From: a virus
Taxonomy: Duplodnaviria; Heunggongvirae; Uroviricota; Caudoviricetes
DNA: 64,000 bases
Strand: one strand, 5' to 3'
IMG/VR virus record: IMGVR_UViG_3300044568_003085
The notes beneath the pieces were generated by a model that did not search any database, was not told where the DNA came from, and saw only the letters and a program-made list of their open reading frames with translations. Of this stretch, positions 2-57,449 are shown one piece after another (position 1 is the first letter of the stretch; each line of letters begins with the position of its first letter). A program made the translations under genes and the position numbers.

Positions 2-1048
2 AATGAAGGATATGATACTGAAGAAGAAGCAGTTGCAGCAGCACAAATTGAAACTAATACTTCTGTTGAACCTGTTCATGTAGTACCTGAAACAACTCCA
101 GGTCAAGATTTAGCAGGATTATCTGATAGAGAATTACAACACAGACTTGAAGCAAACATTGAGGATTATGCTCTTGCTTCAGAAACCGATGGTACTCAAG
201 AAGATTTAGATGAATTACTTTCTGAAAGAAGTTTAATACTTGCTGCAATAAATAAAACTGCAATTGCAACACCTGCATCTAATGCACCAGAAATAGCACC
301 AATTGTTTCAACACCAGAAGTTGTTACTGCAGTTGAACCAGTTACGCCAACAGTTACAATTATAACTGGTGATGCAGAAGACATGGGTGGTCCTGATGAT
401 TCAGATCAAATCACTGCATATTTAAATGGTATTGGTAAATTTGTTGTTGAGTCAAACACAACTGAAGGATTTGATGTAAAAGACAGTGCTGATAATATTG
501 TTGAAACTGTATCTACTGAAGATGAAGCAATTAAAATTGCCACTAGTGCAATGCTGACTAGAGAAAATATTGATTTTGTTTATGACTTCATGAAAGAAGG
601 TGCTAAATTATTTAATATTTCTCAATCAACTTTGCAAAATCAAAACATGCAATCGCGTGGAGAACGCGCAATGAAATTGTATAATACTAAAAAAGGAACT
701 GAATTTAAAACTTTAAAAGAATTTTACAATACTATTGATGGTAAAAATAGTTTAGATGGAATACGTGAGTCAGTTATTACAGGTAAAGCAATAAAATATA
801 AAAATAAAAAAATTACAATTGAAAAACCTGTTGAAGAAGTTCAAACAAATTTATTTGATGTAGTTAAAATACCTAATGTTTTATCTATTAATCTTGCATC
901 TTTAGAATTATTAAATTCAGAACTTGATGATTTTAAAACAAAAACAGAAGAAAGTTCAAAAGAAATTAGTAAATTTGTAAAGGAAGGTGCTGTTACAGAG
1001 TCTTCTATTATCGAACAATTAAAAGATGCAGTTGCTTGTTTCAAGTAA
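2..1048 (+). CDS. hypothetical protein, 5'-partial. The reading frame is open from the window edge; the annotated ATG at 383 is probably internal.
   Basis: Frame 2 is stop-free from nt 2 through 1048 (about 127 extra codons upstream of the ATG at 383 in AT-rich DNA). The N-part is acidic and Ala/Thr/Pro-rich with A/T-biased third positions. The antisense ORFs 54..278 and 196..384 overlap it and are likely spurious. Confidence 0.5.
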   Translation, partial: NEGYDTEEEAVAAAQIETNTSVEPVHVVPETTPGQDLAGLSDRELQHRLEANIEDYALASETDGTQEDLDELLSERSLILAAINKTAIATPASNAPEIAPIVSTPEVVTAVEPVTPTVTIITGDAEDMGGPDDSDQITAYLNGIGKFVVESNTTEGFDVKDSADNIVETVSTEDEAIKIATSAMLTRENIDFVYDFMKEGAKLFNISQSTLQNQNMQSRGERAMKLYNTKKGTEFKTLKEFYNTIDGKNSLDGIRESVITGKAIKYKNKKITIEKPVEEVQTNLFDVVKIPNVLSINLASLELLNSELDDFKTKTEESSKEISKFVKEGAVTESSIIEQLKDAVACFK

Positions 1049-1065: not shown

Positions 1066-4000
1066 ATGGCAAAATGTGAATTATCAACTGATAAATATAT
1101 TTCAGTTGTAAAAAATTTAATTAAACTTAACCCTAGTGAATATAGAAACTTTGATAAAACTGCAGAGTTTATTTTAAAAAGTGGTCTTTCTAATTATGAA
1201 AAATCACTTTCTTTATATTCTATTGCTGAGATATATATTGGTTTACATGGTTTAGATAAACGTTTTTATGAGTTAGGTAAAGCAGATAGGATTGCTGATG
1301 CAAGAGTTTTATTAGATGACACTGATCAGTTTATATCTTCAGTATCTGAATTGTATTCTGTTAAAAAAGCTCCAACTGCAAAAATTGAAACTATTGAAAG
1401 AATGATTAATGATTTGTCAAAAAAGACAGTTGTTACTCGTAAAGATTTAACAAGTTCAAACGGTATATTAAATGCTATTAAAAATTATTTTAATACAATT
1501 GAATTTGAAGATGAAACAATAAGAGAAGGATACATTGATAATGTTAATCATCAATTAAAATCTATGTTACGTGAGTTAAACACATCTGACTCACATAAAG
1601 ATTTGTTATTAAAAGCTGTTGATACAACTATAAGTGCTTTAAAAAAGACTTCACAATTTATTTCATTACGTGACATTGCATCACTTGCAGAATTAAATAA
1701 TGAACTGGTTACTCTTGTCAATGGTCAAATGATTGAAGCAATACCTAGACCTGATGGATTATACGTATATGATCAAATGGGTAATGAACAAAAAATTAAT
1801 GAAAAAGACATTGTTGCAAGAAAAGATGCACGTAATGATGATTATTCTAATAGCAATACTGGTAAGCAAGAATTTTTTGAAGATACAATATTATCTAATT
1901 TTAAAATCAAACCTCTTGAAAATGAGGTATTTAAAAAAGAACAGATAATAACAAAACTTAAAAAAATGGGTGATGCTGTTACTGCTGGTATAAAGATTCA
2001 TGCAGTTAAGATTAGTACAGTAGGTGATGATAGATTAAAAAGAATACATGATGTAGCAGTTGATCCAAAATATAAAGGATTAGCAAATAGAACTTATGAA
2101 ACATTTGAAAATGATACACAAGTTGAATATTTAAAATCTACATCTAAAGGTACAGTTATTACCGTAGCAAGACCAAAACAATCTGAAAATCAATATGTAC
2201 TTGTAGGTGAGATAATTGGTTCTGGTGAAAAGTTTTACTTGTATCCATTAGACAATTATGTATTTTTAAATAGTGATAACACAACACAAAAAATAGATTT
2301 TTCAAATCCAGTTCATCTTGAAATGGTTAAGGAACATTCTATTAAAAGAACAGCTGAAGGAGTTACTGATTTGACTCAAAATGATTTAGAAACATTAAAA
2401 AATACATACAGTTTGCATAACATGTTTAAAGCAAACATGACTGATTTTTTATCAACTAAATTTAATGATGCAATATCTTCTGTTGATGTATCAGAACAAT
2501 TCTTTTTTCAATACAGTATCAATTCTCAAAAAGTTGGAAAAACAACTATACAAAATTTAGCAGATTTAATTGATACAGATAAATCATTATCAAGAAAATT
2601 AACTATAGTAACATTAGATACTTTTGGTAAAACTATAAAAGAAGAAGAAAGAAATCTTATTTTTATGTTTACTAAGTTTAATGATTATAAAGATGCTTCT
2701 GGAAATTATAAACCAAAAGATCAACAAAATAAATTTCAATTAGTAAATTTATTAAACGGTAATGAAAGAATAAAAATAACAAATGCTGAAGGTGAAGAAG
2801 TAGATACTGTAACTCAACAAGCATATTTAGATAATCATTTTGATTCATCTATAAAAATGAATGATACTTACATTAAAGAAAAAATATTTAATGGCAAGTA
2901 TTATGAAAATCAAAATCATATTATTATTAGATTTAATAATAATAAAACATATGGTTACAAAATTGTTAAACCAATTTATGCATTAGAACAAACACAAGGT
3001 TTTGCTACATTTTTAAATACATTGTCTGATGTTTTACAAGCACCAGATAAATCTAGTCAATTAAGAAGTTTCAATTCAAGAGTATATAAATTTGCAGGTT
3101 TTACAGCTTCCAGTGGAAAAGTAGAACTATATGCAAACTTTGCAAATGATGCTAAAGGTAATTTACAAGTAGAAATTAGACCACCTTCAAACGCAAAAGC
3201 AGATAGTAAGTATGGATTTATTTTACAATCACAACCAAACAAAGGTGCATTTAATTTTTCACTTGCTGAAAATGAAAAAGATTTAATCAAAGACAATGCA
3301 AGAACTAAAGATTTAATATCTAAAGTTGTTGGTGAAAATATTATATTTTCTAATTTAGATTTAAATAAATTAAAAGATGTAACTAGATTTTACTCTTTAC
3401 TTAATAAACTTTCAAAAGATAGTAATCCTTCTGAGAATGTACTTAACTTAATTGAAGCAATAGAAACTCAACAAAATAATTTTTCTAAAATACTAAATGA
3501 AAAAGTAATTGAAAAGTTATTAAAAGTTGGTGAATTCTTTCCTGGATTTTTAGATAACTTTAATAAAGATTATCCAAATCCAAAACACTTAATACTTGAT
3601 ATAAAAGCAAATGGCAAAGAAGTACCACGTGTTATTTTTGCAGACAAAAATGAATCTCAAGCAAAAAAAGATTTTATTGCAAGTGCAAGTAGTTTAGAAT
3701 TACATGACATACCACAAAAGAAATTGGTTATTACTTCTAAATCTCCTGTTAGTACAGTTACAAAAATTGCTAATGTTCCATTAACTGAAGTTACAGAGCA
3801 CCCTATAGAAAATATACCAGTATCTAAACCTACTTTGTTTGAACAAATGTTTGGTAATGAAGTTACTGAAGAAACTACTACTAAAGAAGAAATAGATTTG
3901 TCAGATGATATTCCTGAAATAGATTTATTTTCAATATCTAATAGTGAAGTTCAAACAGAAACAGAAGCGCAAAGAGAAAATTCAATTCAATGGTTACAAA

Positions 4001-7000
4001 ATAGTTTACCACAATTTGACATTAGTCAAGAAGAATTATCAACAGTAGTTGACTTATCTAAAATTGATGGCAATGTACTTGGTATGTTTAAAGACAGAGT
4101 AATTCATTTAAATAATGAAATACTTTCTAAAGGAGTTGTGTATCATGAATCATTTCATGGTGTATTTCGTTACCTAATGACACCAGAGCAACGATCTAAA
4201 TTAATTGAACAGGTAACTTCAAATGTAAAAAATAAGAAGTTATTTACACCTTCTGCATTAAAAGCATTTGCAAGTGAAAGAAACTATATTTATGATTATG
4301 AAAAAATGATGAATTTACAAGCAGAAGAAATTCTTGCTGATGGTTTTCAAAATTACATGATTAAAAATACTAAACCTAAAGGTTTACTTGAACAACTATT
4401 TTCATTACTAAAAAAATTAATTGACATGTTTATTAAACGTGGCGATGTAATTGATGGTACATATAAAGATATAAAAAGAGGTTACTATTCAACAGCGCAA
4501 ATTCAATCAGGTATGTATGATGGACAAGCTGCTTATGCATTAATTCCTGGATTAAAAACCATTGTTAAAAATAATAAAAATGCATCTGGTGTAAGTCAAA
4601 AACAATCATCATTACAAAAAGCTGATCAAAATCAATTAGTATATATGGTATCAAAATATATTATTGAAGATACTTCAGGTAAAACTTTTGATGAAAAATT
4701 TGAAACATCAAGACAATTGATTTTAAACAATGTATATAATTTAGACAGAATTATTGAAAAAAATCCTGAGTATACAAGAGAAGAAGTTGTTAAAGCATAT
4801 GGTGATTTGTATTCAAACTATAGATTTATGCTTGGTGCAAGAGCATTAGGTGAAACTATTAATGATGTAAATAATTCTGGTAATGATAAATTTAACAAAA
4901 GAACATTACCAAATAAAATTAAACAATATAAAGATAAGTCACTTGATAATGACTTAGGTCAAGTATCACTTGATGTACTTAAAAAACTTGTTAAAGAAAA
5001 AACAAGAGAGTTATATTCAATGTTGGATGGTGTAGGAAATGCGATAAGCAAAGATGTATTAGCAAAAGAATTATCTGGAGAAAATGAATTTAAATCTCAA
5101 CTAGACGAAGATGCAGAAGATAATGAAGAATTATCTGATGATGTAAATACTGAGGAAGAATTTGGTCAACATAATAGATTGGATTCTGCACCAAGACAAA
5201 TAAGAAGATTTCTTGCAATCATTGATTATGACAAGAAAGACTCTAAAACTGGTATGATTATTCCTCGTGTTATAGATGGCGAATCTCTTTATGGTACTTT
5301 ATTAAAAATTACTTCTGATATTTCTGTTGATAATATAATAAATCACATTAGAGTAATAGCAAATACATATAAAGAAGATGGTAATGTAGAAGCAGCTGGT
5401 GATTTACAAGCAGTATATGATAAACTTGCTTCGTATACATCTATGGATGAAAATGGTAATCCAGCAACTAACAAACAATTATATAATATGTTTAAAGATG
5501 TGCTACATGGTACTGAAACAAATTATATGATTATGTATGCTACTTTAAAAACAGGTATTTTTGAAGAAGAAGGAAATAATATTTCTAGTTTTACCATGTC
5601 AGATAGAGTAATGCAAGCTGATATAGTAAATAGAAGACGTAACTTAGTGTCTTCTATGATTACAACTCATGCAAAAAAACGTACTGATCCAGAATATATT
5701 CAATCAGTAAAAAATCTTATTGCAATTTCTGATAAAATTATTAATGAAAAAATATTAATGGGTAGTAGTAAAGAAGCAAATACTACTTTAGAAACTTATA
5801 CATTTGATTTGTACAATGCATTTAATGCAGTTGGTATTAGTTTACCAAAGTCATTAATTAGAATGTCTTTACTTGCTATTGATAAAATTGATAATAACAA
5901 CAATGCATTAACTCAAGTAAATAAAAATACACTTGAACATTATGATACAAATAAATCTTTAATATTAGAAAGTGCTTATTTACAAAAAGATTACTTTAGA
6001 GATATTAAAGCAATTTACAAAAATGTAATAGATGAATCAATAACATCTAATGCGTTTGGAAAAATGCTTGATGATAAAAATGATAATTTAAATAGATTTT
6101 TTAGTGTAACAAATAAATTTGCAAAATACATTATTAAATATGATGCAACAGATTTACCAAGTGTATTTAGAAATGCTGCAGGTAAACCTGTATATCGATA
6201 TACTAAGTATACACCATTACATACTATTTCACAATCTATAAGACAAGAAGGATTACTAGACACATTAAAAAAAGATCCATACTACAATGATTTCTTAGAA
6301 GATTTTTATTCTGACAATCCATTGTTTAATGACTTACTAAAAGGTGATAATACTAAAAAATCAAAAGTAGCTAAATTATTAATGGACAATATGAATATAT
6401 CATTATTTGGTGGTATTGCTCAGTTTAATAATAAAACTTATAAAGATGGTAAAACTTTTGGTAAATTAGATGATCAATCACTTCATATTATGAGTATCTT
6501 ATCTTTCTTACAAAGAAGTAATATATCATCATATGAAACTGTAATAGATGAAGATGGTAACGTAACAACTCCAAAAACTACTATACAAACTTATGCACGT
6601 TCATTTGACACATTAGAAGCATCACAAACAAACTTTTTAATTACAGCATTATATCAACAATATGCTGATACTAAAGGTGTTACAAAAAATAAAAATAATC
6701 ATCTTAAAATTGTTGATGATCTTGAAGCAAAAGTAAAACAAGAGTTTAACAGAATTAAAAAAGAATGGAATAGAAGAAGTGAAAATAAAACTAATTTTGA
6801 TTCTGGTACTTCTAACTTACTTGTAAATAAATATAATGGTGTATTAGACAGTGTTGATAAAACAAAAGCAAATGTTGAACAAGAAAATTTAAGAGCATAT
6901 AATTTTAATGTGTTTCCGTATTTTTTCAGTGCACCAGAAAATGAATTATTTACAAACAATTTAACTCAATTAGCAAAAGATAATACAGTTCAATTTGAAG

Positions 7001-10000
7001 ATCTTGATGAAAGTACTTTGTCAGAATTACGTGATGGTTTAAATACTTTTGCACAAAAAGAATTAACTATGTATATAGATGAGTTAAAAAATCTTGGAGT
7101 AGTAAAAGAAAATGAAGAAACTGTAAAAGCAATTAAAAAAAATACTACTACTGGTGAAATTATACTAGAAGATGGTATGCCTATTATAACAGAAACTAGA
7201 CAACCTAATATTAAATATTTAACATCTAATTTAATTGCAGATACATTAAAAATAGATTTTAATAAACCAGTTAGTCTTTTAGATGTATATTCAAAAACAA
7301 AAGAAAATTATGATATTAGAGGTGAAAAAGTACAACAAGGAAATTTAGAAGGATTACTTGCAGATCACTTTTTTAATAACTGGTATAACTCATTAAATGT
7401 TAATGAAATATTTACAGGTGATAGAGCATTAAATGTAAAAGATGGTATTGATGCTACTAAACGTAATAAAAAATTCCTTGCTTCTGGTAGCACAATGAAA
7501 GAAGGATTCCATAGAGTTGCGTATTTAAATACAATTGAAGGGTATGTAAATAATAAATATCCTGAATATGGTCCATATTATTCTGCAGTAGAAGTTTTAA
7601 ATGATTTTAAAATAACTGATCCTTCTATAAAGAAATACATATATGAAAATTATAGAGTAGATAAAAATGATGTATATGAAATATTTGATGGACAAAGTAT
7701 TTCATCATTGTTTCATCAAGCAGATATGAATGATTCTTTAGGAAGAGTAACTCCTGAAATTTTAAATTCAATTATTGCAAAACATTACCGTGAACTTACT
7801 GAAGAAGAAGTACGCGAAATGGAAAAAAACAAAATTGTAAATAATCCAAAGAAAACAGTTACTGCTTCTCGTAATATTTATCATAAACAATCAGAAACAT
7901 ATATTGATAGAAATAGTGTTAGTAGATTAATTATACCAGAAGGTTCAACAAAAGAACAAGCATATAGTCGTTTACATTTTTATTATACTGATATATATTC
8001 TTCCAGAAAACAAATTCAAGAATATGATAAAATTAATAAAGAAACAAAATCAAATGAATTAGATACAGCAATTGCTGATTTAGAAAAAGACATTCAAGAT
8101 ACATATACTATTATTCATAAATTTTATGAACCATTACCGCATAGAGTAAAATTACATAATATTTTGAACTCGATGGAGTATCATAATATTGATCAATTAA
8201 TGGATACATCTGCATCTAAAAATGCAACAAAACTTCCTGTTGATTATTTTGCAAATGCAAATTTAAATGAATATTTACCATTAAATTTATCATCATTAAA
8301 TGTAAACAATGAAGATAAGTATCTTCAAGTGGAAACTTCTGGTGTACATGATACTGCTAGATTCTCTGTACAAGGTAAAATATTAATTGCTGCAGATTTA
8401 CAATATGTAGAACAACTTGCTAATAAAAGACATGAGGAAGAAGGTACAATTATGTCATCTACTGAAAGAAAAGCAATGAATGATATTGGTAATGTGCTAG
8501 TAAAATATCAAGAAACATTGTTTGATATTGCAGATTCCAATTTGCAATCTCTAAAACACTTTTTAAGAAAAGATAAAAACTTTGAGTTAGGAAAAATATT
8601 TAATTTAATTAGAGAAAATCTTGAGTCACAAAATGCTCCTGCTTCTATGTTAAAGTTATTTGATGTTGATAATTCTGGTAAACCAGTTCACAATGCTAAC
8701 TTACCTGGAATAAGAAGTATGCTTGAGTATTATTTCTTTTCATTATATAGCAAACATGTAACAGATGAAAGAGGTTCTGGATTTAAAAATATTCACGTGT
8801 CATCATTTGGATACAACGTATTAGAAAATGAAGATGGTACTATTGTAACAACTGAAGAATATCAAAATAATCCAAGTGCATATCCTAATGTAAAAGATAG
8901 ACCACTTACTGTTAGTATTGAAAATATATATAATGATGCAGGTGAAATAATTAATAAAAGATATCTAGTTGAATGTATTTTACCAAAACAATTTTTTAAA
9001 AATAAACAGCAAGAACAATTCTTTTTAGATAATCTTACAGAAATGTTTGCTCTTCGTATTCCTACTGAAGATAAACGTTCTATGATTGCTTTAAAAGTAG
9101 TTGACTATGTTGATAGTTCTAATTTAAATACAATCATAGTACCACAGTTTATTCATTTACTTGCTGGTTCTGATTTTGATATTGATTCATTATATGGTCA
9201 AACATATGCACATTATGTAAATGTTATTGGTAACTATAATAAATTTGGTGAATATGATACATACGCATCTGCTAACCAAGGAAAGTTTATTGAGTTTTTA
9301 CAATACAAAATGGAAGATGAAGATTATAAATCTTTAGTAAAAGCAAAAAGAACTGCAATAATAAATTCAAAAGCATTTGATCCAAGTGCAAATACACTTG
9401 AAGTAATGTATGGATTTGGATTTAATCAAGCAGATTATTTATATTGTGTAAGTCAAAATTATTTTCAAAATATAAATTCTGATGATGATGTTTTATCTGA
9501 AGAAATTGATCAATTGAAAAAAGACAAAGAAGTATCTAGATTAGCTTTTGTTCAAGCAAAAGAAGATAACGATAATAATCCATCTGATTATACTGCAGAA
9601 AACAATAGAAGAATATTTGGTAAACAACACGCAGATATAAAAGTTAATTTACAAGAAAAATTCTGGTTACAAAAATTTGTTAAAGGTGCTTTACGTATTG
9701 AAGCTGCATTACAAGTATTTGAAAAATATGGATTACCTGTTGATCAAAAAAACTTTGATAAAAATATTGTAAATCATTTGTCAGTACTACCAATACATCA
9801 GAACAAAAACTTACAAGCAAAAATAGATATATTATCTAATGAAGCAGTATTTAAGAATTTGTATATACATGAAAGATCATCTGTTGAAGCATTTGAAAAT
9901 ATTAGTACTGAGTATGGTATAGATTTAAATAACTTTGGAACTAAATCAGATCCAAATACTATTACATCATTAGTTAAATCAAAATCATTAGGTTCATCTT

Positions 10001-13000
10001 ACAAAGATGGTATTGGTATTACAGCATCTCTTCAAAAGTTTTTAGCACTTGCTAGTCAATATGGATTAGAATTAAATAATGAAAACATTATTTGGAAATA
10101 TAAAAGTAATAAAACTGATTCTTTAGGTAATCAAAAAACTGTTGACAATTTGTTTTCAAAATTTGGTTCAATCAATGTAGATGGTGAACGTGTAATTGCA
10201 ATTAATGGTAATATTCTTGGAATGTTTGCTGATGGTATGAAAAAACCTATACCAGCGGCATTACAAATGAATGAAGTAAATGCTGGTATTACTCTTGCAA
10301 TGATTGGTGTAGGATTAGATCCTGCATTTGCATTTGGATTTAACTTTATACCAGAAATAAAACAAGCAGTAAATAATATTCAAGCATCTCGTTTTGCAAT
10401 TAGTGAATCTACATCAAGTGAATATAAGTTTTTAAATAATGAAATAACTAATACCATGAAATCTTTTGTTGAAGACAACGGTGGTAGAATGTTACTTAAA
10501 GAGTTAGTTGATGCAAATTTAATTACTCCAGAATCTAATGTATTTAAAGTTGTTATTAATAAAGAAAATTTATTAATTGATTTCAAAGCAAAAAAACTTG
10601 ATGAATATAGATTAGAAAATAATTTATTGACTGTCAATGACATAGGATATGAAGTTACATCTCTTGTTGGAGATGTTGAGACTAGTTTATCTAGTGAAGC
10701 TCAAAAACTTATATTATTACAATTATATAAAGAACAATCACAACAAGCATGGAGTTTAAGAAATGCTGGTTCTATAGTTGATTTGTATAAAAAACTTAAT
10801 CCTTCATTAGTATCTTTTGACAAGTTAATGAAAAACATTAATGAACTTAGAGATGGTAATTCGATATTTACTGTTGAATCAACTGATAAATTGTTTAGAG
10901 ATAAACAAGTATGGGTTCCATTAAAAAGTGCTATTGATGATTTAAATGAACAATCAGTAATATTTTTAGAAAGAACATCATTTTTTAGACCTATTGCAAA
11001 TACATTTGGTACAGTATTTACAGATCCATCTAACATTGCTAAAACTATTACAAGTTTTATTGGTATTCGTAAGTATCAAATGAACCAACATAAAAATCAT
11101 GAAGGTACAGATCCTGTAGCACAAGCAAATTTTGATTTAGATAACGCACTTCTTAAAGAAGTATTTACTGCAGATTATTGGTTCAATAACAAGTTAGAAG
11201 AAAAACTTGATGTAATGAAAATTAAATATCCAGATAATAAGTTTTTACAATTTCTTAAACCATCTAATAATACTGCTAATGCATTAAATGAAAATGGTAA
11301 ACCAATTGTAGAAAAAACTTTAGAAATGGTTAATAAAGCAAAAATATCTGGAAGTTTGGCAGATGATGTTGCTGATGATGCAAACAAATTATACATGGAT
11401 GAAAACTTGTTCATGAAAGAATTATTTTATCATGAACTTGCAAGAACAGCATTACAATATAAATCAGGTTCATTCTTACAATATTTACCATCTGAGTTAC
11501 AAATACCAATTTCAGAAAACATAACTGAATTTATTACAGAAATTGAAAATACTAAAGGTGATAAAAAAGAATTAATAAATGTTATTAGAGATTACATTAG
11601 CACAGATGATATTAAAACAAATGAAGATGTATATAATTTATTTGATGAATTATTTGTATTAATGGCGTATGGTGCATCTAAAGAAGTAGGTAATAAAAAA
11701 ATAAAACAAGTATCTAAAATATCATTTAGTCAAAAAGAAGGTTTTGAATCTGGGTTAATGAAAAAACTTAACTTTGGTACAAGTAAGTTAGATGAAAGAA
11801 TAGCTATTGCTAAAGAAGCAGTTGGAAATATACTTGGTATAAATATAATAAGCAAAGGAAATAGTTTTACTTTATCTGACAAACTTGGTACAGAACCATT
11901 AGAGGAATTTGTTATTAATATGAAAGGTGCTGATGCAATGCCAGAAATGTCTAAAGAAGCAGTGATAGAAATTGGTAACAAGTTAAATGTGTTTAAAGAT
12001 AAAGATGATAAGAATAAATACAAGTTTCCATTACTTTTAAAAATTAGTAACACTACTTATTTATTGCAAGGTATTGATGATGAAATAGATAATAAAAACT
12101 TTGGTAAATCTATTATCAATTCTATTGCAGGTGTTGGTGAATATAAAACTGTAGGTAATGCTGCAAAGTATATGGCTTTACCAAAAGAACTTACAAATGG
12201 TACATTAAATCCAATAGGATTTAGTACTGCAGAATCTAAAAGATATATTAATTTAATAAATAGAAAAATTAAATTACCTGTTGTAGAAGAATTTGATCTT
12301 GGAGAAGCAATGTCTGAAGGTTTAACTGCAGATATGTTTGAAGACTATTCTATTAAACCTGAAACTAAAACGTCTGGCATTTTAACTTTAGAAAAAGTTC
12401 TTAAAGAATACACAATAGAACAATTAAAACAAGGGGTTTCTTTAAAAAGTCTTCAAGAAAAAATTGAACAAAAAGATTTGGATACTATTCAAAAAGCGTA
12501 TAACTATTTAAAAGCTGAAGAAAAATTTAATACTATTAAATCTAATAATGAAAAAATTAATAGAGAACTTGAATCATTAAGACAAAAACTTACAGAAACA
12601 AATGAGACAACTGTGGGCAGTATTCTTACAATTTATAATGATGATAATGATTCTCAGTATAAAATTAAAGTTTTAGAAATTGATAGATATGCTGATTACG
12701 CAATTGTAAAAGGCAGAACAACTAAGAATAAAGAATACACTATTAGAATAGACAAATATGGTGATACAAAAACAGGTTCTGTAGATAATTTTATTTTTGA
12801 AGCTGTTAATCCTGATCAAAAAGAAGATATTAAAAATAGAATAAATAACTTAAAAGCATCATTAGAAACTTTAAAAAGTGATCCTGCTGACTATTATATT
12901 GATTATTTTGAAACAAGTGCTCTATCAAAATTAGATCTTGATATTCAAAATATTAATGTTACCTTTGATATGGTAAAACACTTTTATGACCAAAGTAGTA

Positions 13001-13110
13001 AAACTAAATCATTTGATAGTTATGCAACAGAGTTTGCAACATACGCTGCAAATTTGAAAACAACAGGAATGACAAACAATGAAATTATTGAAAAACTTAA
13101 ATGTTTATAA
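1066..13110 (+). CDS. giant virion-associated protein (4014 aa), a candidate crAss-like virion RNA polymerase with a fused N-terminal region. It carries an HExxH motif (aa 1027-1031) and a DFDID (DxDxD) motif (aa 2703-2707).
   Basis: Uninterrupted 12-kb ORF. HESFH is encoded at nt 4144-4158 and DFDID at nt 9172-9186. The gene sits in the structural module next to another giant ORF and the tail fibre. Confidence that it is a CDS is high; the functional assignment is about 0.35. Confidence 0.85.
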   Translation: MAKCELSTDKYISVVKNLIKLNPSEYRNFDKTAEFILKSGLSNYEKSLSLYSIAEIYIGLHGLDKRFYELGKADRIADARVLLDDTDQFISSVSELYSVKKAPTAKIETIERMINDLSKKTVVTRKDLTSSNGILNAIKNYFNTIEFEDETIREGYIDNVNHQLKSMLRELNTSDSHKDLLLKAVDTTISALKKTSQFISLRDIASLAELNNELVTLVNGQMIEAIPRPDGLYVYDQMGNEQKINEKDIVARKDARNDDYSNSNTGKQEFFEDTILSNFKIKPLENEVFKKEQIITKLKKMGDAVTAGIKIHAVKISTVGDDRLKRIHDVAVDPKYKGLANRTYETFENDTQVEYLKSTSKGTVITVARPKQSENQYVLVGEIIGSGEKFYLYPLDNYVFLNSDNTTQKIDFSNPVHLEMVKEHSIKRTAEGVTDLTQNDLETLKNTYSLHNMFKANMTDFLSTKFNDAISSVDVSEQFFFQYSINSQKVGKTTIQNLADLIDTDKSLSRKLTIVTLDTFGKTIKEEERNLIFMFTKFNDYKDASGNYKPKDQQNKFQLVNLLNGNERIKITNAEGEEVDTVTQQAYLDNHFDSSIKMNDTYIKEKIFNGKYYENQNHIIIRFNNNKTYGYKIVKPIYALEQTQGFATFLNTLSDVLQAPDKSSQLRSFNSRVYKFAGFTASSGKVELYANFANDAKGNLQVEIRPPSNAKADSKYGFILQSQPNKGAFNFSLAENEKDLIKDNARTKDLISKVVGENIIFSNLDLNKLKDVTRFYSLLNKLSKDSNPSENVLNLIEAIETQQNNFSKILNEKVIEKLLKVGEFFPGFLDNFNKDYPNPKHLILDIKANGKEVPRVIFADKNESQAKKDFIASASSLELHDIPQKKLVITSKSPVSTVTKIANVPLTEVTEHPIENIPVSKPTLFEQMFGNEVTEETTTKEEIDLSDDIPEIDLFSISNSEVQTETEAQRENSIQWLQNSLPQFDISQEELSTVVDLSKIDGNVLGMFKDRVIHLNNEILSKGVVYHESFHGVFRYLMTPEQRSKLIEQVTSNVKNKKLFTPSALKAFASERNYIYDYEKMMNLQAEEILADGFQNYMIKNTKPKGLLEQLFSLLKKLIDMFIKRGDVIDGTYKDIKRGYYSTAQIQSGMYDGQAAYALIPGLKTIVKNNKNASGVSQKQSSLQKADQNQLVYMVSKYIIEDTSGKTFDEKFETSRQLILNNVYNLDRIIEKNPEYTREEVVKAYGDLYSNYRFMLGARALGETINDVNNSGNDKFNKRTLPNKIKQYKDKSLDNDLGQVSLDVLKKLVKEKTRELYSMLDGVGNAISKDVLAKELSGENEFKSQLDEDAEDNEELSDDVNTEEEFGQHNRLDSAPRQIRRFLAIIDYDKKDSKTGMIIPRVIDGESLYGTLLKITSDISVDNIINHIRVIANTYKEDGNVEAAGDLQAVYDKLASYTSMDENGNPATNKQLYNMFKDVLHGTETNYMIMYATLKTGIFEEEGNNISSFTMSDRVMQADIVNRRRNLVSSMITTHAKKRTDPEYIQSVKNLIAISDKIINEKILMGSSKEANTTLETYTFDLYNAFNAVGISLPKSLIRMSLLAIDKIDNNNNALTQVNKNTLEHYDTNKSLILESAYLQKDYFRDIKAIYKNVIDESITSNAFGKMLDDKNDNLNRFFSVTNKFAKYIIKYDATDLPSVFRNAAGKPVYRYTKYTPLHTISQSIRQEGLLDTLKKDPYYNDFLEDFYSDNPLFNDLLKGDNTKKSKVAKLLMDNMNISLFGGIAQFNNKTYKDGKTFGKLDDQSLHIMSILSFLQRSNISSYETVIDEDGNVTTPKTTIQTYARSFDTLEASQTNFLITALYQQYADTKGVTKNKNNHLKIVDDLEAKVKQEFNRIKKEWNRRSENKTNFDSGTSNLLVNKYNGVLDSVDKTKANVEQENLRAYNFNVFPYFFSAPENELFTNNLTQLAKDNTVQFEDLDESTLSELRDGLNTFAQKELTMYIDELKNLGVVKENEETVKAIKKNTTTGEIILEDGMPIITETRQPNIKYLTSNLIADTLKIDFNKPVSLLDVYSKTKENYDIRGEKVQQGNLEGLLADHFFNNWYNSLNVNEIFTGDRALNVKDGIDATKRNKKFLASGSTMKEGFHRVAYLNTIEGYVNNKYPEYGPYYSAVEVLNDFKITDPSIKKYIYENYRVDKNDVYEIFDGQSISSLFHQADMNDSLGRVTPEILNSIIAKHYRELTEEEVREMEKNKIVNNPKKTVTASRNIYHKQSETYIDRNSVSRLIIPEGSTKEQAYSRLHFYYTDIYSSRKQIQEYDKINKETKSNELDTAIADLEKDIQDTYTIIHKFYEPLPHRVKLHNILNSMEYHNIDQLMDTSASKNATKLPVDYFANANLNEYLPLNLSSLNVNNEDKYLQVETSGVHDTARFSVQGKILIAADLQYVEQLANKRHEEEGTIMSSTERKAMNDIGNVLVKYQETLFDIADSNLQSLKHFLRKDKNFELGKIFNLIRENLESQNAPASMLKLFDVDNSGKPVHNANLPGIRSMLEYYFFSLYSKHVTDERGSGFKNIHVSSFGYNVLENEDGTIVTTEEYQNNPSAYPNVKDRPLTVSIENIYNDAGEIINKRYLVECILPKQFFKNKQQEQFFLDNLTEMFALRIPTEDKRSMIALKVVDYVDSSNLNTIIVPQFIHLLAGSDFDIDSLYGQTYAHYVNVIGNYNKFGEYDTYASANQGKFIEFLQYKMEDEDYKSLVKAKRTAIINSKAFDPSANTLEVMYGFGFNQADYLYCVSQNYFQNINSDDDVLSEEIDQLKKDKEVSRLAFVQAKEDNDNNPSDYTAENNRRIFGKQHADIKVNLQEKFWLQKFVKGALRIEAALQVFEKYGLPVDQKNFDKNIVNHLSVLPIHQNKNLQAKIDILSNEAVFKNLYIHERSSVEAFENISTEYGIDLNNFGTKSDPNTITSLVKSKSLGSSYKDGIGITASLQKFLALASQYGLELNNENIIWKYKSNKTDSLGNQKTVDNLFSKFGSINVDGERVIAINGNILGMFADGMKKPIPAALQMNEVNAGITLAMIGVGLDPAFAFGFNFIPEIKQAVNNIQASRFAISESTSSEYKFLNNEITNTMKSFVEDNGGRMLLKELVDANLITPESNVFKVVINKENLLIDFKAKKLDEYRLENNLLTVNDIGYEVTSLVGDVETSLSSEAQKLILLQLYKEQSQQAWSLRNAGSIVDLYKKLNPSLVSFDKLMKNINELRDGNSIFTVESTDKLFRDKQVWVPLKSAIDDLNEQSVIFLERTSFFRPIANTFGTVFTDPSNIAKTITSFIGIRKYQMNQHKNHEGTDPVAQANFDLDNALLKEVFTADYWFNNKLEEKLDVMKIKYPDNKFLQFLKPSNNTANALNENGKPIVEKTLEMVNKAKISGSLADDVADDANKLYMDENLFMKELFYHELARTALQYKSGSFLQYLPSELQIPISENITEFITEIENTKGDKKELINVIRDYISTDDIKTNEDVYNLFDELFVLMAYGASKEVGNKKIKQVSKISFSQKEGFESGLMKKLNFGTSKLDERIAIAKEAVGNILGINIISKGNSFTLSDKLGTEPLEEFVINMKGADAMPEMSKEAVIEIGNKLNVFKDKDDKNKYKFPLLLKISNTTYLLQGIDDEIDNKNFGKSIINSIAGVGEYKTVGNAAKYMALPKELTNGTLNPIGFSTAESKRYINLINRKIKLPVVEEFDLGEAMSEGLTADMFEDYSIKPETKTSGILTLEKVLKEYTIEQLKQGVSLKSLQEKIEQKDLDTIQKAYNYLKAEEKFNTIKSNNEKINRELESLRQKLTETNETTVGSILTIYNDDNDSQYKIKVLEIDRYADYAIVKGRTTKNKEYTIRIDKYGDTKTGSVDNFIFEAVNPDQKEDIKNRINNLKASLETLKSDPADYYIDYFETSALSKLDLDIQNINVTFDMVKHFYDQSSKTKSFDSYATEFATYAANLKTTGMTNNEIIEKLKCL

Positions 13111-13113
13111 GAC

Positions 13114-16100
13114 ATGATAAATTGCATAAATATTAATGATCCGTTATTTAAAGAATTAGTTGCTGCATTTGGTGGTAATGAGGCACTTGCTAGAACTGCT
13201 TGTACATTAAACGAAGATGTTATACCATCAGTTGATGAAGCAAAAACTCTTATTGCTAATATGAAAATTGAAGAAACTGATGAACGACATGTTCGTCATT
13301 CAGATCACTTTAAATTAGAAAGAACAAAAGATCAATATGCAGTTTTACAAAACATAAGTATTTTTGCTAATGATTCTCAACGTGCAGCAATAGCAAAACT
13401 TGTTAAAAATAATCAAGAGTATCAAGAATTTTTACAAAACAATATAGAATTAAGAGACGCTGGTAAAAATGCATTACCTTCATATTCTGTAACATCTTTT
13501 ATTGGTTCATCTGATTTTAAAGGTGATCAGACAAAGTATGAAGCATTTAAACTATTTGGTACATTCATGCATGATGTTTTAGAAAAAGCACAAATAGAAG
13601 CATTGAAAACTAGTTCATCAATTGATGTCATATTATCTGAAGAATTTTTTAATAAAACTTATGAAAAGTATTTAGAAAAGAATCCATTTTACATAGAAGA
13701 ACTTTCTAAAGAAAAGATATTTGATATGGCACAACGTGTTGCAAAACATGTATCTATAAATAGAGATGAAGGATATTTAATATTACCAGAAATTACGTTA
13801 GCTGGAAAAGATACTAATGGTAATTTTATTGTTGGTAGATTAGATTTACTTTTAATAAGTAATACAGGTAAAGTAAAAGTATTTGATTTTAAAACAAAAA
13901 AGGTTCATAATATGGTTTACAATAATGCTTTCAATCAACAAGTAGTTGATAAAGATAGAGCATTTGTAAATCTAGCACAAACAAGTTATGAAGTAAAAGA
14001 TAAACCAGGAATGGCAGATTCTTTAAAACAAACAAATTTACTTAGAACAGCATACGATAACTGGACATTGCAATTAAAAGCATATGAAAATATGCTAGGT
14101 CAGATTGGTTTAGTTGCAGAAGATTCTAAAATTGTTGCATTACTATACCAAACAGATGCAAACAGTAAGTTTTTAGGAGATGTTTTACATATATTTCAAG
14201 GTAATAATTATTTTGATTACGCAACACATGCTGCTGTACCAGGAGATGATGGTTGGTGGAAAAATGATCCAATATATTCATCGCAAAGAATTGAACAATA
14301 TCGCAAGGCAATTGATATAGAAATACCAATTGGTGATAAAAAAATTGAAGAAGAACTTGAAAAGAACTTTCAAAACTTAGAGTTTACCCCTAGTGAAGAA
14401 GAAAATAAAAAATTAATTGCTGCAATTAAAAGTGAATATGATAAACAAATTAAAGAAGTTTATGATAGAATAAATGAATTAAAATCTCAAGGTAAAAATA
14501 CAGATGCATTTTATCAATTACTTGATGTTAGAAAAAATACGTTAGCAACTTTTAATACGTATATTCAAAAAGCATCTAATACTGATATTGCATATGAACA
14601 AAACTTTTTTAATATACTTGCTGCTACTGAAGAAGACTTAAAAAAGATGTCTGATTTGTCAGAAAATGCAATACAATCATTTAGACAAGGTAACTTACAA
14701 TTTTCTAATGCAGATGTAACGCAAATAAACGAATCATTCTCAAGATCAAAAGGTCTTAACGAAGTTATTGATGCATTAAAAAGTATTATTAATGATGCAG
14801 AAAAAAATCCAGAAAATAATATATCACCTAGTAGTCCTGTTAGACAAAAGTTATATGAGTTAGAAATGAGTCATTTAACTATTGAAGCAAACTTTAGAGA
14901 AGCATCAGTATTAGCATTAGTAAAAATTGCAATGACTCCAGGTGAGTATGTATATACAAAAGTAAACGAACAAACTCGTGAAGCATTAGAACCTAAAATT
15001 GCAAAACTTGAAAAACAACTTGCAGATATGAGATTAGGTAAAGCTGCAAATTTATTTCAAAGTGTCAGAGGAAGTCTTATATCATTTATGTCAAAAGATT
15101 TTAAACAAAAACTTGCAGACAGAGCTGGTGGAGGAGAACTTGGTGCTCAATTATTAGAAAATATACAACGTGCTGAACTTGAGTTAATTAGATTAAAAGA
15201 ATACGCATCTACTGGATTAGAGTATAATATAGATTCTTTAAAAAAATATGTTACTGCTGTAACAAATCCTGAATCTCAAGTGTACATTGGTTCACAAGAT
15301 ATTTATAATAGTACTTCTATATTTTCTGGATTATTATTAGATAAAGGTATTGCAACTGCATCTAATAGTGATTTATTTTTGTCATCAATGGTTCAAATGT
15401 ATAAAAATGGAAGTGCAAAAGCTGTTCATACAATACAAAATAATCTTATTGCACTTCAATTTGATAAATCAAGAGATTCATTATTAAAAAGATTTACTGT
15501 TGATCAACTAAATGATGAAATATCTGAATGGAGAGAGCACACTGTTATCAATAAAAAAACTGGAGAAAAAGAAACTAAAAGAAGTTTAAATTTTGTTAAA
15601 CCATTTAGTGAAGAATATCAGAATACTTTTAAAGAACATAGTAATAAATTAAAAGAATACAATACTGAATTACGTGAGTTAGAAGCTGACGCCAATAAAA
15701 AATTTAATACACCAGAATATCAAAGTGCTAAACAAACTTTACTTGACAAACGTAAAGAAAAAGAAAATTATAATACAGAACATATTAAATGGTTGATTGA
15801 AAACTCTTCATTACCATTTAATGAGTCTTTCTATAAATTACAAGCATTAATGCCTGAAGAAATCAGAAATGAACTTCAGGAAAAGTATTTTGAAATACAA
15901 CAAATTACTTATGATGTAGGTAAAGGTAATGAAGTATTACTTGAAGATTATGACTTTGAAAGACTTAAAGATTTAGAAGATGATATAAGAGTATTAAGAG
16001 AAAAAGCAAAAAAAATTAATCCAGATTATGCTACATATATGGAAGAATTTAATAACCTTTTTGAATTTGATACAAACTATGCGTTTTATGAAAGAAGAGA

Positions 16101-55088: not shown

Positions 55089-55325
55089 CTAATTTTTGTT
55101 TAATTTGTTTTTAAAATAATTTATTGCACATTCTAATATTATCACACTATAATAGGATGATGAAAAAATTGTCAAAAGTAGTATTAATAAACCCAATACA
55201 AAGGTAAGTGTTGATGGTTGACTCATTAAATGCAAAGATACCATAACCATTCCTATTGCAGAAACAGTTATGATAAATATGCAAATTAACAATAACCAAA
55301 TGTTATTTTTAATTTTTGTAAACAT
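55089..55325 (-). CDS. small two-TM membrane protein (78 aa), possibly an NfeD-like partner of the SPFH protein
   Basis: Two hydrophobic helices. It sits immediately upstream of the SPFH gene on the same strand. Confidence 0.45.
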   Translation of the reverse strand: MFTKIKNNIWLLLICIFIITVSAIGMVMVSLHLMSQPSTLTFVLGLLILLLTIFSSSYYSVIILECAINYFKNKLNKN

Positions 55326-57181
55326 TAGAAAATCATTTTTTCTTTAATTAATTTATCTACTTTTTTTGATACATATGAAATCATATCATTAGGTAAATTT
55401 TCTATGTTTGTCATTTTAATAAAATAATCAAACATTTCTTCTGAAGGTACTTCTTCGTCAATTGCAATTTGAATCACTTGGAATCCTAATGCTTGTGCCA
55501 TAGTAACCTTTTTTCTAGTGTCATTGATAGACGCTTGACCATTATAACCATATGCAGCTGGTTGACCATCTGAAATAACAAATAACAATCCTGGATCAGC
55601 AGTTCTGTTTCTAACACGTTTGGCAACTGCATAAATTGCATCACCATCTCTGTTATTACTTCTTGCAGTAGCAGAACCTAACGCATAAGGATCCATGTTT
55701 GCACCTGGTTCACGATAAATTCTAATAGTACAATCACGTGTATTCTTTTCATCTGCAGTATGACCATAAATATACAGTTGAACATCAGGTTGCTTTTTGA
55801 ATACTTCATTGATAAAAATAGCAGCTTGACGTGCTTTTTTCATTCTATCTCCACAACCCATAGAACCAGATTCATCAATCAACACTGTTATGTTGATTTT
55901 ATTTGTGGTTACTTGACCAAATCTTTCGTAAATAGTTGGTACTCTTTGAATTGCTTCAGCAAGTTTATTAGTATCTAGTCTACCTGAACGCATAGATTTC
56001 ATAGAAAACTGATAATCTTTTGATTTACGTGAAAATAACTTTGCAAGAACTTGAGCTTTTGTACTATTGATTTTTGTCAAATCTTTTAAATACTTATCTT
56101 TATCAGAATCAGATTTCTTAAATACAACATTTCCATCAATAGATTCACCTTCTTTACTAAAATCATGACCTGGAGGCAAAGCTCTTTTTTCTTCCATATC
56201 ATCAGTAAAGTCATCAAAATCATCAGAAAACTCATCTGAATCATCACCATCAGGAGCATTCATCATTTTTTTCATCATCTCCTGTGCAAGATCATTCATT
56301 TCAGATTTAGTTGGCATTGGTGCTTTTCCACCTTTACCTTCTTCATCTCCTTCTTCATCTCCATCACCTTCACCATCTCCTTTTTCTTCTTCTTTTTTGT
56401 CTTCTGCAATTATGAACTTATTAATTACACCAGAAAGATATTGAGCTTGTTTATCACAATCCATTGATGTAAGTGGAAATCCATGTTTTTTCATATAACT
56501 TTCAATTTGAGAAAGAGGTTTTGCAAACTCATCTACTTCTTCTTCAGTTACATGTGCAGGGTATCTAAGAAATTTAGTAATAGTTTCAGTAAGTCTTTTA
56601 CCAGCATGTTCTTCTTCACCCAATGGTTCATATGTTTTATCATATTTATATTGTTTAAATTTTTGAACAAACTTGGAATAACCTGGAAATCTATCTGCTA
56701 ATCTTTTGTCAATTCTTTCAGTATTTAATATTGTAAACATTAAATCTCTGATAGTTGTTGTTGTTTGTGAACTACGAGCATTCATGGTACGCATGTACTC
56801 ACTTTTTGTCTGCAAGGTTGCAAGAGCTGCATTTTGAATTGCAGCACCGTAAAACGCATCTAAAAGCTCTACATCATGATTCATATAAGTACCATCTTCT
56901 GCACGTAACATACTCAAAGGAACTGGAACAGTTGTTTTATCATTTACTGCTCTAAGTTTATTTGAATGATCATATTTCACATCTTTTGGTACACCAATAA
57001 CTCTAAACATAGAACCAATCATTTTAGCTGCAGATCTTAAGTTTTGATTATCTCTTACAAAATAAGAAGAGTAACCTGTTCTACCAGAATCCCAGTCAAA
57101 TAACTTTTTACTTGGATCATAAAAAGAATAAGCATCTTCTTCTTTTCTTTTCCACCAGTCTTTTTTAAATTTTATACTCAT
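55325..57181 (-). CDS. von Willebrand factor A (vWA) domain protein with a central acidic low-complexity region; CobT-like
   Basis: MIDAS motif VLIDESGSMG (DxSxS) in the C-terminal domain. Acidic tract EEKGDGEGDGDEEGDEEG. Length 618 aa and domain order match phage/bacterial CobT-type proteins paired with MoxR/CobS ATPases. Confidence 0.8.
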   Translation of the reverse strand: MSIKFKKDWWKRKEEDAYSFYDPSKKLFDWDSGRTGYSSYFVRDNQNLRSAAKMIGSMFRVIGVPKDVKYDHSNKLRAVNDKTTVPVPLSMLRAEDGTYMNHDVELLDAFYGAAIQNAALATLQTKSEYMRTMNARSSQTTTTIRDLMFTILNTERIDKRLADRFPGYSKFVQKFKQYKYDKTYEPLGEEEHAGKRLTETITKFLRYPAHVTEEEVDEFAKPLSQIESYMKKHGFPLTSMDCDKQAQYLSGVINKFIIAEDKKEEEKGDGEGDGDEEGDEEGKGGKAPMPTKSEMNDLAQEMMKKMMNAPDGDDSDEFSDDFDDFTDDMEEKRALPPGHDFSKEGESIDGNVVFKKSDSDKDKYLKDLTKINSTKAQVLAKLFSRKSKDYQFSMKSMRSGRLDTNKLAEAIQRVPTIYERFGQVTTNKINITVLIDESGSMGCGDRMKKARQAAIFINEVFKKQPDVQLYIYGHTADEKNTRDCTIRIYREPGANMDPYALGSATARSNNRDGDAIYAVAKRVRNRTADPGLLFVISDGQPAAYGYNGQASINDTRKKVTMAQALGFQVIQIAIDEEVPSEEMFDYFIKMTNIENLPNDMISYVSKKVDKLIKEKMIF

Positions 57182-57393
57182 AATTTCTTATTTAACTTGT
57201 CAATAATTTTTTCAGTAATTTGTTTTTTCTTTGCACGTAACTCTCCCCAATCATTATTATGTCTATTCCACATGTTATATACATATTCAGGAATATCTTT
57301 TATTGAAATAAGTCTTTGTTTGAATTTTGCATTGAATGTATGCTTAAAAGTTTTACCCATAATATTTGAGTTAATGCATGAGTTTCCCATCAC
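57178..57393 (-). CDS. hypothetical basic protein (71 aa)
   Basis: ORF between the ATPase and the vWA gene, overlapping the vWA start by 4 nt. Confidence 0.4.
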   Translation of the reverse strand: MMGNSCINSNIMGKTFKHTFNAKFKQRLISIKDIPEYVYNMWNRHNNDWGELRAKKKQITEKIIDKLNKKL

Positions 57394-57449
57394 TAAGTGT
57401 CATTTGTATACTTAATGACGGGTTTCTCATACAAGATTGCTTGATCCTA

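Follow-up and report, generated by a model that had tools for sequence, protein, structure and literature searches.

Bacteriophage phi14:2 encodes gp66, a 2180-residue virion-packaged DNA-dependent RNA polymerase (RNAP) with the catalytic motif 1361-DFDID-1365, in which two double-psi beta-barrels (DPBBs) are joined by a Connector (1095-1238), the bridge helix occupies residues 1529-1559 and the trigger loop residues 1598-1636 (Drobysheva et al.). Presence in virions has been published for phi14:2 gp65, gp66 and gp67 and for crAss001 gp47, gp49 and gp50 (Drobysheva et al.; Bayfield et al. 2023). Some crAss-like phages make the three cargo proteins as a single fused polyprotein, and a Zincin-like domain is part of one of the three (Drobysheva et al.). 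Here we describe a stretch of 64,000 nt from the IMG/VR record IMGVR_UViG_3300044568_003085 (the window; all positions use whole-window numbering), in which a giant open reading frame (ORF), g1, had been proposed, from the letters alone, as a candidate virion RNAP fused to a zincin-like region (the original prediction). With a probability of about 0.88, g1 is a crAss-like virion RNAP fused to an upstream HExxH-bearing, zincin-like cargo module. Features of the locus are collected in Table 1.

The reading frame of g1 is intact under genetic code 11, with no in-frame stops and a uniform GC content of 0.25-0.29. It holds a single DxDxD motif, DFDID (aa 2703-2707, nt 9172-9186), and a single HExxH motif, HESFH (aa 1027-1031), and the extent of the ORF and the places of both motifs are as first reported. 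Each motif is weak taken alone: about one DxDxD and 0.1 HExxH had been estimated by chance, and the composition of g1 gives 1.4 and 0.045. Among 43 aligned relatives with 27-72% identity, however, G2701, S2702, D2703, D2705 and D2707 are invariant, as are H1027, E1028, H1031 and E1088, with E1087 nearly so. Both motifs are invariant in over 110 giant relatives with identities as low as about 27%. They recur about 1350-1700 residues apart in 31 distinct IMG/VR loci and in 116 giants taken as cluster representatives, and 49 of 50 distant representatives have the Asp triad where the alignment predicts it. Conservation along g1 has two peaks only, aa 1001-1050 and aa 2651-2700, which are the motif regions; variable linkers of low occupancy lie at aa 901-950, about 1336-1366, 2001-2050 and 3751-3950. 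The motifs are not chance occurrences, because they are invariant across relatives.

A tblastn search of 50,697 phage records with g1 aa 2001-3200 matched 72 records, all of them crAss-like and all over aa ~2504-2713, ending at DFDID; in annotated records the matches lay mostly under genes named RNAP catalytic subunit. By BLASTP, gp66 aa 1322-1368 aligned with g1 aa 2664-2710 at 36% identity over 47 aa, with the Asp triads coinciding, and crAss001 gp50 aa 1435-1521 aligned with g1 aa 2655-2742 at an E-value of 5e-10, with gp50 aa 1483-1487 at the DFDID position. A family profile of the core, made from g1 aa 2230-3120 and 42 relatives, matched gp66 in two collinear blocks (E 5e-14). The first block, on gp66 aa 1134-1369, covers the connector and the second barrel and places DFDID on DFDID, while the second (profile positions 621-855, gp66 aa 1427-1665, E 1.1e-10) spans the published bridge helix and trigger loop. 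The same profile matched the RNAPs of crAss001 (gp50, 7e-24), crAssphage (gp44, 1e-22), Rudgehvirus (5e-35) and cr4_1 (gp26, 1e-16). The description of gp66 in the original prediction, a protein of about 2180 aa with a catalytic DFDID, agrees with that of Drobysheva et al., and the roughly 1300 extra N-terminal residues expected from it correspond to an alignment offset of 1342. Searches of Pfam and PHROGs with g1 and with g2, the next ORF, gave no matches, and searches of PDB sequences with g1 alone and with the core profile gave nothing useful. When fragments of g1 were searched against 5.8 billion proteins, the core yielded only 7 relatives and the HExxH region a single one.

An AlphaFold2 model of the core (g1 aa 2230-3120), built on 21 sequences, had a predicted local distance difference test score (pLDDT) of 83 and a predicted template modelling score (pTM) of 0.81. 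Foldseek comparison of this model with the PDB returned 6vr4_A, the phi14:2 virion RNAP, with an E-value of 1.7e-10, a probability of 1.00, 941 aligned columns and a query-normalised template modelling score of 0.48. This was the sole significant match; all others had E > 0.2, and the weak trailing ones were other phage two-barrel RNAPs. In the model, DFDID lies in a loop between a short helix and a beta strand, with beta-rich surroundings. Rather than lacking a barrel fold, or carrying DFDID in a non-conserved loop, g1 has a core that matches 6VR4 and an invariant GSDxDxD that aligns with gp66, and the proposal of a candidate virion RNAP holds up well. Upstream of the connector, K2263, K2274, E2277, R2282, E2371, D2380, K2385, Q2421 and T2424 are invariant among the 43 aligned relatives, and the three lysines lie in or near predicted strands. 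The original prediction had suggested looking for conserved lysines upstream of DFDID; these three are candidate equivalents of the catalytic lysines of gp66, QDE-1 or the beta subunit, and we infer that the segment bearing them is the first barrel.

The part of g1 from aa ~1370 to ~3750 is very probably a single-chain two-barrel RNAP of the phi14:2 gp66 type, composed of a lysine-bearing barrel, connector, second barrel, bridge helix and trigger loop, in which the GSDFDID loop would hold the catalytic Mg2+. By analogy with gp66, g1 would be a DNA-dependent enzyme that is carried inside the capsid, enters the host by ejection together with the DNA and can transcribe early genes before any phage protein is made; for packaging, ejection and early transcription, the models are phi14:2 and crAss001. 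Gene context is consistent with this assignment. On both flanks of g1 are the other large RNAP-associated cargo genes, an upstream partner of about 1100 aa and g2. BLASTP aligned phi14:2 gp65 aa 972-1319 with g2 aa 1488-1831 (E 3e-7) and crAss001 gp49 aa 921-1173 with g2 aa 1490-1755 (E 6e-7), cr4_1 gp27 matched g2 at 1.5e-6 and 2.4e-4, and g2 also matches the segment that is fused to the RNAP in Intestiviridae. On these sequence matches, g2 is an orthologue of phi14:2 gp65 (C-terminal part), crAss001 gp49 and cr4_1 gp27. It contains no HExxH motif.

The HExxH motif of g1 belongs to a module with the signature HExxH-(55)-EE, which is gluzincin-like: the candidate third ligand, E1087-E1088 in AEEILADGF (nt 4324-4329), lies 56 residues past H1031. 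In an AlphaFold2 prediction the core helices of the module have pLDDT values of 79-97, and HExxH is on a predicted helix and the Glu-Glu pair on a confident one. The module matched crAss001 gp47 aa 2100-2296 (BLASTP 4e-11; hidden Markov model (HMM) 1.7e-16), with HEAFH on HESFH, and the module of cr4_1 gp26 (HMM 2.3e-7). Pairwise comparison separated the HExxH modules of Crassvirales into two sequence groups. Group A (HEAFH...EE.LAD) comprises the module in the window, crAss001 gp47 and the Suoliviridae giants, and group B (HExxH...EF..E, invariant) comprises crAssphage gp45, Rudgehvirus ZnMc, the N-terminus of phi14:2 gp65 and cr4_1 gp27. Group B is the published Zincin-like module; cr4_1 carries both groups. 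Alignment of group A with group B by hhalign gave a probability of 63% and an E-value of 6.8e-5, with HExxH and the Glu motif in register, and the module in the window is probably related to the published one. Crassvirales thus have two HExxH groups, located in different cargo proteins, of which only one has been discussed so far.

The suggestion of a zincin-type HESFH stands in part. The HExxH and Glu-Glu residues are invariant and the homology to the gp47 module is clear, but a search of PDB sequences with the HExxH profile gave zero matches, and Pfam over 24 module members gave no match at cut-off, only a sub-threshold Astacin hit (E 0.096) in 2 of the 24. Fold searches with the module did not recover the zincin fold. 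It is plausible to call the module zincin-like by motif and lineage, as opposed to by demonstrated fold, and it most likely binds zinc as a gluzincin-type hydrolase; gluzincin metallopeptidases (e.g. MtfA and anthrax-LF-like PPEP) are among the closest known systems for g1. Such a metal-dependent hydrolase could act in the activation or processing of cargo proteins, or on the cell envelope. Alternatively, the module may not be a protease but a structural metal site, another hydrolase such as a peptidoglycan peptidase that would aid passage of the ejected proteins through the cell wall, or a polymerase-regulating docking domain like C1 of the N4 virion RNAP (vRNAP), a reading that we hold to be a real contender though appreciably short of an even bet. 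That neither a zincin fold nor a Pfam peptidase match at cut-off was recovered fits it, and Drobysheva et al. named peptidoglycan digestion as an option. N4 C1 has a conserved HExxH of unassigned function and packs against the polymerase, and the local context G..G...I.L...HExxH is alike in N4. However, over 110 relatives all keep the catalytic E1028 together with a downstream Glu-Glu pair, spaced as in gluzincins. This full catalytic signature exceeds the needs of metal binding alone, and the module has no significant sequence match to N4 C1. We favour the gluzincin-type hydrolase.

The frequency of the fused layout was assessed with an exhaustive HMMER search of 1.84 billion cluster representatives, which retrieved 645 relatives at E <= 1e-3; the stricter cut-off of E <= 1e-30 was reached by 171. 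The best 150 are mostly 3500-5200 aa long and match at about residues 2100-3100. Nearly all giants of at least 3000 aa carry HE[AGS]FH, nearly always 1350-1700 residues upstream of D[FLY]D[IV]D. The layout is alike in 34 related IMG/VR loci (34-70% identity, on contigs up to 136 kb), and HEAFH and DFDID are fused in one ORF in the Suoliviridae proteins cr4_1 gp26 (4491 aa; HEAFH at 2002, DFDID at 3433) and cr60_1 gp27 (4494 aa). The original prediction had regarded a polymerase-protease fusion as unusual. This view has to be given up, because the Suoliviridae giants, most of the best 150 metagenomic representatives and the description by Drobysheva et al. make the HExxH-RNAP fusion known and widespread: it is the majority state and not an oddity. 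With g1, the experimentally characterised crAss virion RNAP is extended to a large uncultured environmental clade (the 645 cluster representatives, at 50% identity).

The Asp triad of unfused RNAPs (gp66, gp50, P0147 and P0155) is found at residues 1361-1483, and the RNAP part of g1 would therefore start at about aa 1220-1370. The acidic linker at aa 1336-1366 is, judging by sequence, the likely point at which a segment inherited from the upstream cargo protein gives way to the RNAP. The first ~1300 residues of g1 would then correspond to the C-terminal part of an upstream cargo protein that is separate in crAss001 (gp47); for the first ~900 aa, recognisable relatives are confined to the clade. 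At the other end, the C-terminal 149-744 aa of the giant are a separate ORF in 10 related loci (about a third). This separable module ends in a conserved ...K[IL]KCL.

The boundaries of these cargo proteins, which otherwise contain almost no Cys, are marked by cysteine. Only 4 of the 4014 residues of g1 are Cys, at positions 4, 2637, 2794 and 4013. Orthologues of the upstream protein (22/22 loci) mostly have a single Cys (two in L016), within the last four residues. Among 116 giants, where the internal Cys frequency is 0.00023, a Cys occurs in the last 10 residues in 114, against about 0.2-0.3% expected, and in the first 11 residues in 69. Characterised phages have the same pattern. In phi14:2, gp67 ends with its single Cys, the only cysteines of gp66 are residues 3 and 2179 out of 2180, and gp65 has a single Cys at 3; in crAss001, gp47 ends with C2339 of 2341, gp50 has C5 and C2404 of 2412, and gp49 has C5; in DAC15, protein 61 has the C-terminal Cys, protein 63 both and protein 62 the N-terminal one. 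Where proteins are fused, the cysteines at the joined ends are missing. In Intestiviridae (RNAP and second subunit fused), the zincin protein has a Cys at its C-terminal end, and the giant begins with M-x-C but lacks Cys at its own C-terminus; in Suoliviridae (upstream protein and RNAP fused), the giant has a C-terminal but no N-terminal Cys and the next protein starts M-x-C. Giants without an N-terminal Cys have HExxH about 640 residues further from the start (median 1657 vs 1018), which fits fusion of upstream sequence.

The converse is seen at fissions. Where the giant is split near its C-terminus, a new Cys pair appears at the break in 10/10 loci (...DENNC, stop, then MKC...), and the small ORF has exactly two Cys, one per end. 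Over the 31 distinct related loci, the rule is obeyed by the upstream protein in 22/22, by the two ends of the giant in 22/22 and 27/27, and by the downstream start in 27/27. A terminal Cys is thus present on both sides of each unfused junction, within a few residues of the end, while the chain as a whole has none at its outer ends. This holds for 9 reference Crassvirales belonging to 3 families, for these 31 loci and for 114 of the 116 giant representatives. The sole apparent exception is crAss002 gp33 (11077-11180 of its locus), whose first Cys is residue 35; residues 33-35 are M-S-C, and because this resembles other RNAP N-termini, the annotated start is probably 32 codons too early. The N4 vRNAP and its two ejection partners (gp50, gp51 and gp52) have zero Cys. 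Terminal cysteines on cargo proteins are not mentioned in the vRNAP preprint or the crAss001 structural atlas, and a wider literature search found no mention of them.

A nucleotide-level cause of the terminal Cys codons, such as translational coupling or a ribosome-binding site, was rejected, because the Cys is not fixed in position (anywhere between the last and the eighth-from-last residue at C-terminal ends, and between residues 3 and 6 at N-terminal ends) and because the pattern persists with genes on opposite strands (crAss001, DAC15). Homotypic dimerisation through terminal Cys is disfavoured, because fissions give one Cys per side of the break and the outer ends have none. As the simplest reading, we tentatively propose, at somewhat less than even odds, that disulfides between single terminal cysteines link the RNAP-associated cargo proteins of Crassvirales head-to-tail, from the upstream protein (...C) through the RNAP (C...C) to the second subunit (C...). 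The virions of crAss001 hold many structural disulfides (Bayfield et al. 2023). Such a chain would be one thread of about 7000 residues, the functional equivalent of a fused polyprotein, which would fix order and 1:1:1 stoichiometry during passage through the tail and then fall apart in the reducing cytoplasm. Evolution would trade peptide bonds for Cys pairs, fission gaining a pair and fusion losing one. If true, this would account for the way in which three huge proteins are ejected in a set order and ratio. The Cys rule is also of practical use for placing start codons and gene boundaries in these cargo genes, which are hard to annotate.

A different view of the long chain treats g1 as a genuine polyprotein that is cleaved, perhaps through the activity of its own HExxH module, at the linkers aa ~901-950, ~1336-1366 and ~3751-3950, with a polymerase of ~2400 aa as one product. 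Cleavage of a polyprotein was proposed by Drobysheva et al., the low-occupancy, low-complexity linkers fall exactly at module boundaries, and the same boundaries are gene boundaries in other lineages. Nevertheless, no cleavage-site motif was found, and the Cys pairs at the ends of separate genes suggest selection for joining over separation; we consider processing of this kind unlikely, though worth keeping in mind.

Two other identities for g1 are refuted. It is highly improbable that g1 is a virion RNAP of the N4 type (T7-like, single-subunit, right-hand): its size of about 3500-4000 aa, virion context and HExxH domain would suit, but PDB searches gave no sequence match to polymerases of N4 or the T7-like kind, the motif is the two-barrel DFDxD, and the core model matches the two-barrel 6VR4 and not the N4 mini-vRNAP. 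That the two motifs arose by chance in a large structural protein of the tape-measure or internal-body kind, without any enzymatic role, is equally remote, since the DxDxD expectation of 1.4 per protein of this composition and the empty Pfam and PHROG searches are outweighed by the invariance of both motifs across hundreds of relatives, the significant fold match to 6VR4 and the profile match to gp66 over bridge helix and trigger loop.

Table 1 Features of the window (aa positions refer to g1 unless another protein is named)
Feature	Position (nt)	Strand	Basis or remark
C-terminal 349 aa of upstream cargo protein, cut off by window start	2..1048	+	Frame 2 open from nt 2 to stop at 1048
Upstream-protein Cys, 3 residues from end (...AVACFK, stop)	1037-1039	+	Only Cys in 221-aa ATG-to-stop part
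Giant ORF g1, joining an N-terminal region and HExxH module to a crAss-type two-barrel virion RNAP (probable)	1066..13110	+	ATG start, 4014 aa
Cys4 of g1, conserved N-terminal Cys (M-x(1-3)-C)	1075..1077	+	Cys at position 3-4 in 22/22 complete N-termini of related loci
Variable acidic/Thr-rich linker ahead of HExxH module, aa 901-950	3766..3915	+	Occupancy 0.49, identity 0.09
HExxH (zincin-like, group A) module, aa ~970-1215	3973..4710	+	HESFH at nt 4144-4158
Acidic low-complexity linker, aa 1336-1366	5071..5163	+	Conservation dip
Candidate first barrel (beta-like DPBB), aa ~2260-2436	7843..8373	+	Invariant columns, AlphaFold2 beta strands, upstream of connector-aligned segment
Second barrel (beta-prime-like DPBB) with catalytic GSDFDID, aa ~2569-2729	8770..9252	+	Profile alignment to gp66 aa 1134-1369
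Bridge-helix-like (aa ~2966-2996, KDGIGITAS...) and trigger-loop-like (aa ~3043-3080, GNILGMFADGMKKPIP...) elements	9961..10305	+	Profile block on gp66 aa 1427-1665
Variable linker and C-terminal module, aa 3751-4014, ending ...EKLKCL	12316..13107	+	Low occupancy aa 3751-3950; split loci
Cys4013 of g1	13102-13104	+	...EKLKCL
g2, second RNAP-associated cargo protein, 1962 aa	13114..19002	+	Starts 3 nt after g1; BLASTP matches to gp65, gp49, cr4_1 gp27
N-terminal Cys4 of g2	13123-13125	+	C-terminal Cys absent
Tail-spike-like protein, 1094 aa	19047..22331	+	PHROG 4636, tail spike, E 1.2e-8

The surroundings that the original prediction had cited, an adjacent second giant ORF and a tail fibre, were confirmed as g2 and the ORF with the tail-spike PHROG match. 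Because frame 2 is open from nt 2, the 221-aa ORF listed at 383..1048 represents just the C-terminal portion of a longer protein; its orthologues in 22/22 related loci have 978-1189 aa (about 1100 aa). From about 29 kb onwards the minus strand carries a replication module, with genes for DNA polymerase, exonuclease, primase and helicases, that converges on the giant genes; the same arrangement is found in Cellulophaga phage phi14:2. The DNA polymerase is a PolA whose best matches, at about 35%, are to Vibrio and Nitrincola phages; because this type is widespread, it is uninformative for taxonomic placement. The suggested placement in Crassvirales is drawn from the transcription block, the major capsid, portal and large terminase genes being outside the window. 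A 675-aa ORF at 26088-28115 matches several very large PHROGs of unknown function, among them PHROG 17273 (E 5e-52) and PHROG 22899 (E 2e-40); the matches fall in 3-4 repeated stretches, and the protein is probably a repeat-containing fibre or surface protein. Within the replication-side block, at 55325-58724 on the minus strand, a CobT/vWA-like protein (617 aa) and an AAA+ ATPase-like protein of the 'porphyrin biosynthesis' type (423 aa) are adjacent and form a MoxR-vWA-like pair.

Of the known systems, N4 gp50 (Schitoviridae) is the most distant. Like g1 it is a giant virion polymerase (3500 aa) with a conserved HExxH subdomain, and it is ejected, as is thought, as beads on a string. Unlike g1, it has a T7-like polymerase fold, an HExxH placed C-terminal to the polymerase, no Cys and no detectable sequence relation. 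The N4 HExxH context GNIYGW...KTIYL...LIHELVH resembles that of the module in the window; the C1 HExxH domain and this module gave no significant sequence alignment.

In crAssphage (Carjivirus communis), gp45 is annotated as 'RNAP associated protein fused to zincin protease' and gp44, of 4070 aa, as 'RNAP catalytic subunit fused to unknown RNAP subunit'. The three building blocks (zincin-bearing cargo protein, RNAP and second subunit) have the same order and giant size as in the window, with a Cys pair at the one unfused junction. The RNAP of crAssphage is however fused to the downstream subunit, whereas that of g1 is fused to the upstream module, and the crAssphage zincin module belongs to group B, related to that in the window at the profile level only (63% probability). 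The C-terminal HEAFH module of crAss001 gp47 is the closest characterised relative of the module in the window (E 1.7e-16), and crAss001 gp47, gp49 and gp50, all detected in virions, share the terminal Cys pattern. In crAss001, by contrast, three separate genes lie on two strands, and only the last ~260 aa of the 2341-aa gp47 are recognisably common with g1.

The polymerase itself is best compared with phi14:2 gp66, with which g1 shares the catalytic GSDFDID residue for residue, a collinear profile match that runs from the connector and second barrel to the bridge helix and trigger loop, a Cys at each extreme terminus, and a place between two other large cargo genes. With 2180 aa, gp66 is a stand-alone protein, while g1 has about 1340 additional N-terminal and about 490 additional C-terminal residues, and the Zincin-like module of phi14:2 is in gp65, downstream of the RNAP, and belongs to the other sequence group. 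The fused architecture of g1 is shared with cr4_1 gp26 and cr60_1 gp27, in which an HEAFH module is followed in one ORF by DFDID about 1430-1520 residues downstream, the C-terminal Cys is kept and a second subunit of the C... type comes next. The cargo genes of these two Suoliviridae contain 7-55 in-frame stops under code 11, as would be expected from the reassignment of a stop codon that has been described in some members of the crAss-like phages. The Suoliviridae giants differ from g1 in having about 1000 more N-terminal residues (the whole upstream protein fused), no N-terminal Cys and a recoded stop codon, and in coming from the human gut as opposed to environmental water; the downstream protein of cr4_1 carries a second HExxH, of group B, where g2 has none.

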